Positions 4,312-47,180 of a DNA stretch of 64,000 bases are shown piece by piece. Made by a program: the position numbers and the translations under genes. The stretch is from an uncultured Thermoplasmatales archaeon. Its GTDB lineage: Archaea; Thermoplasmatota; E2; UBA202; DSCA01. The notes under the pieces are model-generated. The model searched no databases and was not told where the DNA came from. It saw nothing but the letters and a program-made list of their open reading frames with translations. The stretch spans positions 27,193-91,192 of the forward strand of contig CAZESS010000006.1 of the NCBI GenBank assembly GCA_964514975.1. The letters are read 5' to 3'. Numbering within the stretch: the first letter of the stretch is position 1; each line of letters opens with the position of its first letter.

Positions 4312-4351
4312 TCATCCTCCTTTATTATAACTGAGTTGAGTCAATTAGTAA

Positions 4352-4705
4352 CTAGTCTATAGAACTTTTTTCATCTTTCAGCAGCTTCTCAATATCCCTT
4401 AACAACCTCATTTGCTCGCTATCGTGGGCATGCATTTGTCTATTCCTAAAAGTCCAAATGGAGGGTAGTACCAACACATACACAAACGCCATCATCCCCA
4501 ACGCCAGTAAACAAAAGAAACCTAAGAAGTAGTAAACTTTCATCCAAGGAAAAATTACAAGCAGATGAGGTCTTAAGGTTTCGTACAATACGATTGTTAC
4601 CGAAATAAAGTTTATGGCCCCTAGCATAGGTAACATCGTATACAAGGAGTCAATCAAAGCCCCTAACCAAGGGACGTTTCTTTGCTGCCACCACTTCAAC
4701 TTCAT
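4352..4705 (-). CDS. Small two-TM membrane protein
   Basis: Two hydrophobic segments; overlaps the upstream gene by 4 bp. Confidence 0.6.
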   Translation of the reverse strand: MKLKWWQQRNVPWLGALIDSLYTMLPMLGAINFISVTIVLYETLRPHLLVIFPWMKVYYFLGFFCLLALGMMAFVYVLVLPSIWTFRNRQMHAHDSEQMRLLRDIEKLLKDEKSSID

Positions 4706-34540: not shown

Positions 34541-34655
34541 CTGGTACCCCTGACGAAGCCCCGGCGTTCTTAAGACTTTGATTAAAAGAATGCCTCGTCA
34601 ATTATGACGCACGTCCAACTTACTCTCAGAACCCGGGACCCGTCAAGGGTGGCTA
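34541..34655 (-). ncRNA. Candidate rod-shaped structured RNA
   Basis: Nested stems ACCCTTGACG/CGTCAGGGGT, GGTCCCGG/CCGGGGCT, GTTCT/AGAAC, GTCA/TGAC; wobbles favour the minus strand. Confidence 0.55.
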
Positions 34656-35280
34656 GTGTCCGAAGGCGAGTTAGCTACTTACGCAGCGTGCTGTTTGTCG
34701 TAGCGGTCGGCCGGGTAAATGCGGTCTACGCGAGGGCGGATCTGCTCCTCGAACGCCTCATTGTGGAGCTTGGCGGAAGCTTCCATACCAATCCAGTCAC
34801 CCGGCTTGAATACGAATGCCTCGTTAAGCTGCACGTCAGGGTCGAGAGCCTTAAGAAGCTGGTAAAGGAAAGGTAGCGCCTGTGACTGCAGGGAGAACTC
34901 CCTAAACAGCTTACGCCCGGAGGCTTTAACAGTGCGCTCGCTATAGCCCACCTTCTTCATGCCGCCTTCGGCTTCCTCATCGGGCTCCCACTCCTCTATC
35001 GCGACTTCTTCAGGACCAATGATGGTCATCTCGCAGGTAACCTTTTTCTGGTTACTGCGGTTGGAGACACCCTTTTCCATGTTGGTGACGCGGACCTTGT
35101 AGATCTCGCGATCGTCCAACGGCTCAAATGGCCTTACTTCGGAAAAGTCTAGAATCTCCTCGTTCTCAGCTTCTGGTCGTCTTGCCAATGTGTTTCCTCC
35201 TACTACAAACAAATTTTTACTGTTCCAGTCAATCCTCAGCTAATACCCGGTTCCCCGTACTAGCCTCTTCGGACACTAGC
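34652..35280. repeat. 14-bp perfect inverted repeat enclosing the SSB-like gene
   Basis: GCTAGTGTCCGAAG at 34652-34665; CTTCGGACACTAGC at 35267-35280. Confidence 0.9.
34679..35188 (-). CDS. Putative OB-fold ssDNA-binding protein (DUF669-like)
   Basis: AGGAGG + TTG at 35188; DFS..FEPL..Y.V.V, GRKLF, ALPFL, DWIG; neighbours are Rad52-like and RusA genes. Confidence 0.6.
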   Translation of the reverse strand: MARRPEAENEEILDFSEVRPFEPLDDREIYKVRVTNMEKGVSNRSNQKKVTCEMTIIGPEEVAIEEWEPDEEAEGGMKKVGYSERTVKASGRKLFREFSLQSQALPFLYQLLKALDPDVQLNEAFVFKPGDWIGMEASAKLHNEAFEEQIRPRVDRIYPADRYDKQHAA

Positions 35281-36197: not shown

Positions 36198-36695
36198 GCT
36201 TCTCCTAAGATGTCTATATATAATAAATGTTTATTCGTGGTTATTTACGGATACTCGACTATACTAGGATGCTCTGATCTGATTAGGTGTACCAAAGTAC
36301 TTCTTGGAGGTAAGGGTTTATCTGATGCTGCGATAACGTCAACATCCCATTGATCCGGATTACATTCCTTAAGAAACAAAGGTCTTCCCAAAGATTCCTG
36401 CAGACTCTGTAAGTCCTTCAACCCTTTTTGATATTCGTCGTTAAGTATTAGGTAAATGACTTGTTCCAAGTTGTATTAACCCCCTCGTTCATCCCCCGTC
36501 TCCCGACATCCTCGTGTGAGTTAGCCGGTTTTCTACCCATGAAATAGTGTACTTAGGATAAGGAAACCTGGCGTTGAGGTTTCTCCAGGCTTGAGCGTGG
36601 CTGTAAGCGGAAGTGTATTGATAAGAAGAAGCTCCGTTAGATCTATCGCGCACCAACGCGATGTACCTGTCGCGTGCTTTCTCAATCATACCTAT

Positions 36696-36805
36696 ATTAT
36701 AGAAGCTAATTCTCTCAAAATCAATATTATATAGAATTTTGAGAAAACTTCACATTTATTTTTAGATTTTTGGGTGTTGATAATTTCAATATAATGCTAT
36801 ATTAT
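36696..36805. promoter_or_regulatory. Divergent sigma70-type promoters with an operator-like inverted repeat
   Basis: Minus strand TTGATT-N17-TATAAT; plus strand TTGATA-N17-TATTAT; TCTCAAAAT-N14-ATTTTGAGA at 36713-36744. Confidence 0.75.
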
Positions 36806-36811
36806 TATAGA

Positions 36812-45485: not shown

Positions 45486-45967
45486 GCGCTCAATGAACAT
45501 GCGCAAGTATATGCCAGCTACTATAGAACTGGTAGACTACGCGTTAGGCGACGACCCCTGCAGCAAAGACTCCGGATGGTTATTCGAAATGCTGTTCATT
45601 CCATGGGTTACACTCCTTGTCGCACTTGTAGAATTGCCGTGCATCCCCCGCAGGTATGCGCAGGTCCGTAAACTCCGTAAAAACCGTTAGTTTCAAGAAA
45701 TCTCGGAGTTCCAGGATTTCGCGTTTCCGCGGGGGTAAGCTTTTTTCTCGGGGGTCCGCCTTAGAAAGTCGCTAGTAGTAGGATATAATATAGTAATTTC
45801 CAAAAACCTTTCAACACATGCCAAACTAGTCCTTCCCCACTTCAACAACGGCATTTCAATGAATCCCGAAACTCACGGAAATCCCTGTTTTGCCGTAAAC
45901 ACTGAAATCCCGCACATTACGCCTTATCTGGACACTTCCAGTTTTCTTACATATGGGGTTATGTTAG

Positions 45968-46250
45968 ATAATCTCACATGATTCGTTCAATTATATGAAA
46001 TATGATGAGGGGTTGATAGCTCAAGTGTGATGATGTATTATTATCATAGTCAATAGTACATTACAAACTGAATAAGTCGATTCGACGTGTGAATTACGTA
46101 CTCGTACGTACTTCCAAATCCAACCTGAACTACACGTCGATAATCTCACATGAGAAGTTCAATTTCTGAAATTATGATGTGGGGTTGATTATCAGAGTTT
46201 GATGATGTATTATTATCATATTGAGATTGTACATTACAAATTGAATAAGT
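45968..46250 (+). promoter_or_regulatory. Tandem duplicated ~110-bp promoter units (period 172 bp), each with a boxA-like element
   Basis: TTGATA/TTGATT-N17-TATTAT at 46013 and 46185; GTACATTACAAA(C/T)TGAATA at 46056 and 46229. Confidence 0.85.
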
Positions 46251-46643
46251 AGTTGGTGTTTGGTGTAGTCTATCTATTGCTTAGGAGGCAAGACCAATGA
46301 CAGACAACACTGAACGCAAAGGCCAGACTCAGCCGAACAAAGCTGAACAACCTGCAGAGAAGACCGTTACTCTGAAAGTACCGGCGGGCGTAGACCCTAC
46401 CCTGTACGCAAAGAAGGCCGAGAAGGCAATCGAACGGCAGGAGTCAGACATGGCCAGGCGCGAGAAGTACAACGCTGCTCGCGGCGCCGCTCGCACTCGG
46501 CTGGTCGAAGCCCACAAGTCAGAGTACAACAAGTACCTGGCAGAGGAGAAGGCCGCGCGAGGCATCAAAGCCAGCGCCTAGCACACAGTACGTAGCAACC
46601 CCAGCAAGTCCGTAGTGTACAATTCGCACCAAACACCAACTAC
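46249..46643. repeat. 17-bp perfect inverted repeat enclosing gene 46297..46581
   Basis: GTAGTTGGTGTTTGGTG at 46249-46265; CACCAAACACCAACTAC at 46627-46643. Confidence 0.92.
46297..46581 (+). CDS. Small basic helical protein with strong codon bias
   Basis: AGGAGG RBS; TVTLKVPAG...ARGAARTRLVEAHKSEY. Confidence 0.8.
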   Translation: MTDNTERKGQTQPNKAEQPAEKTVTLKVPAGVDPTLYAKKAEKAIERQESDMARREKYNAARGAARTRLVEAHKSEYNKYLAEEKAARGIKASA

Positions 46644-46651
46644 CGCCCAGC

Positions 46652-46684
46652 ACACACAGCCTGCTTCTTGCGGGCTGTTTGTGT
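46652..46684 (+). terminator. Terminator-like hairpin
   Basis: ACAGCCTGC-TTCTT-GCGGGCTGT followed by TTGTGT. Confidence 0.6.
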
Positions 46685-47180
46685 ATCCTTGAATTGGTCC
46701 AGCCCATGAAAACCCAATCGACCTCACCTCCATTACACAACATGAACGTTGCTGTAGGTAATACGTACTTTCAAAGCCGTCGCGGTCTATGCACTGCAGA
46801 CGGCTGTAGTACTATCCGACCGAGAAAACACGGAACTCCAGGATTTGCCGTATTACTATGAAAACACGTACGTGCGGTAGGGTCACTGCACGTTTGTCAC
46901 TACATCATTACGGAGGTGCATATGGATGACATGTTACAACAGTGGGAAGAAGGTGTAGCGGATTCAGGTCTGTCAGGTAACGAAAAGGCAGAAATCGTCG
47001 GATGGGTGAATCGGATGAATGCCGTTTACAATGACGGGGCAGATGACCTGCCTGCGAGGTTCATACTGGATGGCGTCCTCACCGTCCTTCGGAAAAACCC
47101 TGACGTAATCATTCCTTAGAGACTCGGGAGTGTCGTGGGTTATGACCCGATTCACGACGCCTATTGGGAAAGGAGCGTGT

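Follow-up and report, generated by a model that had tools for sequence, protein, structure and literature searches.

The 64,000-nt stretch of DNA analysed here, referred to as the window, makes up most of contig C6 (CAZESS010000006.1; 91 kb, 46% GC) and carries on its plus strand, at 45967-46678, a small gene whose flanks are complementary to one another. The gene (46297..46581) encodes a 94-residue protein and was delineated from the list of open reading frames (ORFs) and from its homologues. A 17-nt sequence ahead of it, GTAGTTGGTGTTTGGTG (46249..46265), and a second one behind it, CACCAAACACCAACTAC (46627..46643), form an inverted repeat whose arms are complementary at 17/17 positions and separated by 361 nt. 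A preliminary description of this DNA had noted two promoter units of about 110 bp, each followed by a shared box, a perfect 17-bp pairing that starts right after the second box, a 3' arm located 45 nt past the stop codon and a terminator-like hairpin thereafter; all of these elements were confirmed at the coordinates given below.

The region upstream of the gene (45691-46296) is among the longest non-coding stretches of C6 and houses both promoter units, 45967..46077 and 46139..46250, which were recognised as direct repeats bearing promoter-like hexamers. Pairwise alignment placed sharp borders around a repeat unit of ~111 nt, with 79% identity over 82 nt (45967-46048 versus 46139-46220) and 92% identity over 25 nt (46053-46077 versus 46226-46250). 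Within the unit, the conserved blocks are interleaved with diverged spacers and follow the order GATAATCTCACATGA (the upstream box), GTTCAATT, GGGGTTGAT, TGATGATGTATTATTATCATA and a terminal 22-nt box. Each unit holds one putative sigma-70-like TTGAT(A/T)-17-TATTAT site (46013-46041 and 46185-46213); the -35-like hexamers, GGGGTTGATA at 46013-46018 and TTGATT at 46185-46190, and the -10-like hexamers, TATTAT at 46036-46041 and at 46208-46213, were assigned by consensus match only. The terminal box, of the form (A/T)GTACATTACAAA(C/T)TGAATAAG and hereafter called the leader box, reads AGTACATTACAAACTGAATAAG in unit 1 (46055-46076) and TGTACATTACAAATTGAATAAG in unit 2 (46228-46249). An unrepeated 61-nt spacer (46078..46138) with a short palindrome at 46091-46114 lies between the two units.

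The 5' arm shares its first base with the last base of the unit 2 leader box and stops 17 nt upstream of a Shine-Dalgarno sequence, AGGAGG (46283..46288), which is positioned 8 nt 5' of the ATG. Past the gene, the 3' arm is followed after 12 nt by an intrinsic-terminator-like hairpin, ACAGCCTGC-TTCTT-GCGGGCTGT and then TTGTGTATCC (46656..46678), consisting of 9 pairs, 6 of them G-C, a loop of 5 and a T-rich tail.

Two enclosing helices in contig C6

Mapping the longest perfect complement between the 150 nt upstream and the 120 nt downstream of each C6 gene demonstrated how unusual this pairing is. Across 173 genes, the scan returned 17 nt at the 94-aa gene and 14 nt at a minus-strand gene at 34679-35188, with the other 171 genes at 10 nt or less; the maximum among 1500 non-cognate upstream/downstream pairs of C6 was 11 nt. 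Folding of 46220-46690 placed the 17-bp helix in both the minimum free energy (MFE) and the centroid structures (z-score -4.54; 0/100 shuffles as good), and in the predicted fold the helix reaches 18 pairs with the inclusion of one G-U pair. Computed duplex energies looked inflated, and we relied instead on perfect-complement lengths and on rank relative to shuffles. A further pairing of 46226-46237 with 46612-46623 (12 nt, 92%) is not nested with the main helix and was taken as chance.

The second enclosed gene (34679..35188, minus strand) encodes a 169-aa OB-fold protein resembling single-stranded DNA-binding protein (SSB), as judged from its structural model (predicted local distance difference test (pLDDT) score 91.2), its best PDB matches, PrgE and bacterial SSBs, and its 74 homologues; a 73%-identical homologue is encoded on a 52-kb contig. 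In minus-strand reading, the arms of its 14-bp helix are GCTAGTGTCCGAAG (35267..35280) and CTTCGGACACTAGC (34652..34665), the latter located 13 nt past the stop codon; the helix was present in MFE and centroid folds (z-score -4.05). The SSB-like gene is operon-internal, directly downstream of a Rad52-like gene; it lacks an obvious promoter, and no T-run adjoins its helix. Thus, a long-range duplex encloses the product at both the 94-aa and the SSB-like genes of C6.

The 94-aa protein is rich in Lys, Arg, Glu and Ala, and was modelled with a disordered N-terminus and two long helices (pLDDT 78.8). An exhaustive profile-free search recovered four small homologues, 43-55% identical over the matched parts, and the family alignment, from which P0004 and P0006 were excluded as long proteins matching in many short stretches, revealed invariant positions R55, Y58, N59, A61, R62 and L69. 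On sequence criteria, we regard the ORF as a real gene. The family is small and its members come only from uncultured viruses. Searches with the 94-aa protein against Pfam, PHROG, PDB and Atlas clusters gave no usable match, a fold search with its model gave none at E 0.001 or better, and a word-indexed protein search returned the self-match alone. The protein was found in 0/12 other genomes of the bin's family, no DNA relative of the locus was found in a phage collection, and no locus of the family was found in viral-contig scans or in the first genome-contig scan. Single-protein scans with the SSB-like protein and with a 154-aa neighbour protein, and a second genome-contig scan, gave no match either. 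A metagenome scan for the 94-aa family returned one locus, L013, in which the gene runs off the contig end so that the 3' flank lies outside the contig; this distant homologue sits downstream of two ~65-nt direct repeats (4338-4400 and 4598-4660), each with TTTTTTTGAAAAAA, and has its own promoter-like TTGCTT-17-TATAAT site.

Other classes of element were queried at the locus. Rfam families with E up to 5 yielded nothing beyond a chance-level small RNA (sRNA) match in 45600-46900, and in the whole window only two tRNAs. A C/D-box sRNA reading of the promoter units, suggested by ATGATGA and CTGA motifs, was rejected by eye for wrong box spacing and for the lack of motifs in unit 2; a reading as a miniature inverted-repeat transposable element or other transposon was rejected for lack of a target-site duplication and for unrelated arm sequences. 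Three further features of the region were recorded. An upstream box CTCACATGA occurs once per unit (45973-45981 and 46145-46153), and a related CTCACATATGA forms four to five tandem copies with 15/30-nt periodicity (L018 7654-7859) upstream of a paralogue in a related virus described below; a cassette-specific regulator probably binds this box. On either side of the cassette, a ~21-nt motif with partial palindromy (CGGAACTCCAGGATTTGCCGT or a variant) recurs, in three copies altogether (45704-45724, 45876-45896 and 46831-46851); it could be an operator or an insulator. Contigs of one public run covering this DNA end at 46475 and restart at 46595, where a GC-rich palindrome of the ORF is located.

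Recurrence with replaced arms in related viruses

Two related viral genomes allowed the arms to be compared. G013, an IMG/VR contig (47 kb, 44% GC), was reached through the alignment of SSB-like homologues and is collinear with C6 at 29-63% protein identity; G014 (110 kb, 41% GC) was reached through the leader box pattern and is also syntenic with C6. The box pattern was present in 43 viral stretches, 40 of which were screened by tblastn with family proteins only, gave no match below E 0.5 and were treated as chance. The complement scan identified 15 nt at 1/99 genes of G013 (control maximum 12 in 1000) and 15 nt at 1/208 genes of G014 (control maximum 13 in 1500).

By alignment, the stem gene of G013 is a paralogue of the 94-aa family, and its upstream region aligns with the window's promoter units at equal spacing, with a repeated CTCACATATGA, a GGGGGGTTGACA-17-TAAAAT site and a box, TGTACCTTAACAATTGAATAGG. 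The order continues with the 5' arm GAATAGGCAAGGGGG, a GGAGG ribosome-binding site 3 nt (GCG) behind it, the ORF, 36 nt past the stop codon, the 3' arm CCCCCTTGCCTATTC and T runs; after the 3' arm, 4 nt precede TTTTTT, there is no local hairpin, and two T6 runs follow the arm. The positions of these arms match those of the window's arms while no sequence is shared. The stem gene of G014 is a distant homologue (hhalign probability 91%) and the positional equivalent of the SSB-like gene of C6; its arms are GCTAATCCCTAGGAA and TTCCTAGGGATTAGC, as compared with GCTAGTGTCCGAAG and CTTCGGACACTAGC in C6, and the 5' arm begins 4 nt past the stop codon of the upstream gene. The small helical proteins are present as two or three paralogues per virus genome, some of them in tandem (G013: L015 1501-2009 and L018 7982-8227; G014: L033 740-1541).

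Hence, each of two gene families is enclosed in two genomes, with the arms replaced and the perfect pairing retained, which bears out the covariation that the preliminary description had proposed to look for. All four helices are uninterrupted perfect duplexes without a bulge; their arms occupy the stretches that separate the ORF from the neighbouring signals, within the presumed transcript, and bracket just the ribosome-binding site and the ORF. Two lines of evidence, i) the improbability of the pairing relative to controls and ii) its recurrence in relatives with replaced arms, lead us to conclude that the 17-bp stem is not due to chance and appears to be selected.

The leader box recurs as well. 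In the form GTACNTTANNAANTGAATA, with up to 2 mismatches, it is found in two copies in C6, one in G013 and two in G014, and nowhere else in those records. Since it is conserved in three related viruses, the box is probably functional. One G014 copy lies past a terminator and ahead of the ribosome-binding site of a gene that neighbours members of the 94-aa family, and the other precedes ~590 nt without an ORF (L052 3985-4585, minus strand), a stretch with no Rfam match and a fold that is not unusual (z-score -1.6). The direct contact of one G014 copy with a ribosome-binding site rules out that the box is itself a -10 element, and we read it as a leader RNA signal or a DNA operator.

Function of the helix and nature of the host

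We favour, with somewhat better than even confidence, a reading in which the arms pair at the RNA level, closing the 5' untranslated region (UTR) onto the 3' UTR and setting the stability or the processing of the mRNA. The locus would then be a complete cassette for high-level expression, belonging to an uncultured virus and arranged as a duplicated promoter unit, the 22-nt leader box, the 5' arm, a strong ribosome-binding site, the gene, the 3' arm and the terminator. In its transcript, the arms would form a perfect 17-bp panhandle that joins the two UTRs immediately ahead of the terminator; closure may control ribonuclease access and thereby yield a monocistronic mRNA with a long lifetime, encoding a protein that is required in large amounts. 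At the SSB-like gene, the helix would carve a stable unit out of a longer operon transcript. A helix that is protective or that defines transcript ends is favoured because a comparable 14-nt duplex in the hbs mRNA of Bacillus subtilis is reported to limit RNase Y cleavage, as confirmed there by compensatory mutations, and to work without RNase III, with rnc deletion changing nothing (Braun, Durand and Condon 2017, PMC5737220). Whereas the viral helix may be protective only, as in hbs, it is possible that it is also cut by a double-strand-specific nuclease.

The demand for abundant product is suggested by codon usage. Ranked by GC content at third codon positions (GC3) among 174 crude gene calls of C6, the 94-aa gene is second and the SSB-like gene fourth, which points to the codon usage seen in highly expressed genes. 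Given this rank, the AGGAGG sequence and the duplicated promoter units, high expression of the 94-aa gene is plausible. The preliminary description had proposed that a very abundant mRNA is stabilised or excised; of this, abundance is plausible by GC3 rank and a role in stability or excision by the hbs precedent.

Several observations weigh against this interpretation. The positional orthologue of the 94-aa gene in G013, G013a, carries a promoter of its own, ends in a strong local terminator and is not enclosed by a complement (127/300 shuffles equal it), nor is the SSB-like orthologue of G013 (82/300 shuffles equal it); the architecture is therefore not universal, and the comparison spans three genomes. 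The four helices comprise 61 base pairs, every one of them Watson-Crick and none G-U, and they end abruptly; this is unusual for old RNA helices and would be equally expected from a constraint at the DNA level. No RNA run was among the public runs listed for this DNA, transcript ends and transcript abundance are predictions, and GC3 is an indirect proxy of expression for which ranks 1 and 3 are occupied by doubtful small ORFs from crude gene calls.

Which enzymes could act on the helix depends on the host. C6 is compositionally foreign to its archaeal bin: the other large contigs of the bin have 56-61% GC, and the bin as a whole ~59%. The bin encodes four TATA-binding protein (TBP) genes and no sigma-70, and no rRNA gene was found in it. 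The contig has the appearance of a large virus whose group is undescribed. Among its products are a family A polymerase that carries a uracil-DNA glycosylase domain as a fusion, a protein-primed type B polymerase and a Zot/AAA ATPase, together with UvrD-like and SNF2 helicases, a Rad52-like protein, PC4, an HNH-like zinc-finger protein, a phosphoesterase, FolE and QueC of the 7-deazaguanine pathway, three radical-SAM/SPASM proteins, MetK, an STT3/AglB-like oligosaccharyltransferase, glycosyltransferases and two tRNAs; its presumed structural region gave no PHROG match. A divergent control region at 36690-36810, with facing TTGATT-17-TATAAT and TTGATA-17-TATTAT sites, separates a minus-strand replication/recombination block from a plus-strand block. 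The bin has its own bacterial-type MetK (G000:C18:42585-43679), which makes the C6 MetK uninformative on the host; the MetK family matched 0/4 archaeal control genomes.

We consider a bacterial host roughly twice as probable as an archaeal one. Under the archaeal alternative, which we hold to be possible if doubtful, the AT-rich block TATTATTAT would be a TATA box, transcription would start a few bases before the 5' arm, and the paired 5' end would be shielded from archaeal exonucleases with no role for Nus factors or RNase III; the enzymes involved would change while the closing-helix idea would be kept. The contig was binned with an archaeal genome, although its GC content sits well below that of the bin, the single spacer-like match from bin to contig is a 20-nt chance match, and the contig's MetK and QueC proteins share 48-50% identity with their counterparts in the bin. 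The STT3 protein, which has an AglB core domain, reaches 289 bits with an archaeal model (TIGR04154), under the model cut-off of 450, and the bin's best STT3 match is 28% identical. More favourably for an archaeon, the C6 tRNAs read the AT-rich codons TTA and AGA, as fits a host of higher GC content, the MetK argument for a bacterium falls away, and the 3' arm of G013 precedes two T6 runs, T runs being the archaeal kind of terminator.

Promoter evidence is divided. The strict TTGACA-N16-18-TAnnnT pattern is not enriched genome-wide in any of the three viruses, and 4/14 strong sigma-70-like sites fall in the 10% called non-coding, a weak enrichment. Against an archaeal host, a spacing of exactly 17 nt between GGGGTTGA(C/T)A and the AT-rich hexamer that follows is preserved in the homologous promoters, which is the geometry of sigma-70 promoters and not that of a transcription factor B recognition element (BRE) with a TATA box; TTGACA-17-TACAAT sites also lie ahead of family genes in G013 and G014, and a minus-strand TTGATT-17-TATAAT site at 36696-36724 ends 6 nt before an ATG, a bacterial leaderless geometry. 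Hairpin-plus-T terminators are present, a family A polymerase is encoded, and all the phage-database matches listed are to phages of bacteria or to unassigned ones. The bulge-helix-bulge motif of archaeal rRNA-type processing stems, on which splicing endonuclease and ligase act to give circular intermediates, is absent from all four helices.

If the host is archaeal, mimicry of a bacterial rRNA operon through Nus/boxA and RNase III is inapplicable. We judge this mimicry unlikely: in it, the leader box would be a boxA that loads NusB/NusE to produce a termination-resistant polymerase, and the helix an RNase III stalk from which the message is excised. The order of promoter(s), leader box, 5' strand, product and 3' strand is that of rRNA operons, and the box is conserved in three viruses with no other occurrence in C6 or G013 and two copies in G014, one of them ahead of ~590 untranslated nt, the type of RNA that needs protection from Rho. 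Scored against the Escherichia coli boxA consensus UGCUCUUUAACA, which may not be that of the host, the five copies match at a mean of 7.8/12 in one register (reached by 196/20000 column permutations), and by eye the best copy, G014a, differs at one position from GYTCTTTAANA. The window copies each have 3/11 mismatches to this gamma-proteobacterial consensus, which likewise may not be the host's; 3 mismatches are at chance level, given that sites with up to 2 mismatches number 120 in the window versus 146 expected, with none in the leader. Position 3 of the E. coli consensus, a T, is A in all five copies, and no likeness to the B. subtilis consensus was found (13615/20000 permutations reach it). 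The consensus sequences were taken from PMC5725501 and PMC13753749. Resemblance of the box to boxA is thus weak, a lead and not family membership.

Placement and helix length speak against this mimicry as well. A box between a terminator and a ribosome-binding site, as in G014, is an odd spot for an antitermination signal, and a terminator belonging to the 94-aa gene itself lies 400 nt downstream. Classical RNase III sites span roughly two helical turns, and helices of 14-17 bp fall below this. In favour of the mimicry, a cis-encoded duplex in a bicistronic transcript of Staphylococcus aureus is a reported RNase III substrate (bioRxiv 10.64898/2026.09.18.752551); against it, the equivalent hbs duplex, as reported, is unaffected by rnc deletion (PMC5737220). 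The larger proposal, in which the virus clade expresses its most-used protein genes in rRNA style, with a boxA-like box recruiting host elongation factors, perfect 14-17-bp helices cut by a double-strand-specific nuclease to excise a closed, exceptionally stable or even circularised message from any longer transcript, and arm sequences that may drift provided that complementarity is kept, is in our view slightly less probable again. What stands of the rRNA-operon analogy first drawn for this locus is the order of elements, the enclosing long-range helix and the conservation of the box in three viruses; the likeness of the box to boxA is weak, and Nus antitermination, RNase III cleavage and circularisation are hypothetical here.

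It is improbable that the helix is instead a regulatory switch, be it a terminator hairpin formed over a long range or an element that competes with ribosome binding and thereby links translation with termination or decay. G013 comes closest to such an arrangement, with its 3' arm followed after 4 nt by TTTTTT and no local hairpin, and with only GCG between its 5' arm and GGAGG; moreover, hbs decay is reported to be set jointly by ribosome occupancy and the long-range interaction (PMC5737220). In the window, however, 17 nt lie between the 5' arm and the ribosome-binding site, the 3' arm is followed by a distinct, local terminator hairpin, and the SSB-like helix is operon-internal with no adjoining T-run. 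Least probable is that the repeats act on DNA, as an invertible or mobile cassette or as hairpins in the displaced single strands of protein-primed replication: four perfect Watson-Crick repeat pairs with sharp ends and a protein-primed type B polymerase would suit it, but recombinase sites are conserved sequences whereas these arms differ wholly between homologous loci, the contig encodes neither a serine nor a tyrosine recombinase (the bin's 1 Resolvase and 9 Phage_integrase matches are on other contigs), no target-site duplication surrounds the arms, and the arms enclose only a ribosome-binding site and an ORF within a transcription unit. For these reasons, we read the arms as strands of an RNA helix and not as recombination sites; one DNA run contained no strand-changing joint, though it is stored as contigs broken at 46476-46594, which leaves room for inversion.

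Relation to known systems

To our knowledge, end-to-end mRNA pairing of the bacterial type is documented in just a few cellular genes, and a full-text literature search, at the level of titles and abstract openings, returned no description of such pairing as a device that recurs across a virus group. In the genomes compared, the device was seen four times, in three related viruses and in two unrelated gene families, and the replacement of arms with retention of perfect pairing is the comparative signature of a selected RNA structure. Should the helix lengthen the life of the message or define its ends, it would constitute a compact, portable booster or insulator of gene expression, usable also inside operons, and would offer a simple sequence rule to spot the most strongly expressed genes of uncultured viruses. 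The conserved 22-nt box is a candidate regulatory signal beside the helix and a concrete target for binding studies.

Four known systems were compared. The mRNAs of type I toxins such as hok fold back by 5'-3' pairing through tac/fbi elements to give a stable full-length transcript, and the window locus is alike in that the mRNA of a small gene would be closed as a whole by pairing of its ends. In contrast to hok, the 94-aa protein is hydrophilic and helical and not a membrane toxin, an antisense RNA is not evident, and the pairing leaves the ribosome-binding site untouched. Bacterial rrn operons are characterised by P1/P2 promoters, boxA and RNase III stems; putative tandem promoters, a conserved leader box that partly resembles E. 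coli-type boxA and a long-range helix flanking the whole product are held in common with the viral locus. The viral product differs in being a translated mRNA, the viral helix in being 14-17 bp long and perfect, and the viral box departs from each consensus published in two sources at a position that is constant in them (PMC5725501, PMC13753749). In the icaR mRNA of S. aureus, the 5' and 3' UTRs of a single bacterial mRNA likewise pair, as reported, for control of translation (PMC3868564), whereas the ribosome-binding site of the window gene lies outside the helix.

The closest documented case appears to be hbs, which is described as possessing two promoters, a very strong ribosome-binding site and a structured leader, 14 nt of which pair with full complementarity to the 3' UTR immediately ahead of the terminator (PMC5737220). 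The window locus shares the structured leader, the strong ribosome-binding site and, by consensus match, putative tandem promoters, as well as a small product of ~92-94 aa, abundant in hbs and probably abundant here. Perfect 5'/3' UTR pairing upstream of the ribosome-binding site and of the terminator extends over 14 nt in hbs, 17 nt in the window and 14-15 nt in the other viral cases; in the window, it comprises 17/17 pairs, with 12 nt from the 3' arm to the terminator hairpin. The two differ in that the window gene is viral and its product not HU-like, and in that the effect on RNase cleavage is reported for hbs and would be expected by analogy for the viral helix. The promoter unit of the window is, moreover, a recent duplication with a conserved 22-nt box ahead of the arm, and the viral device also brackets an operon-internal gene.

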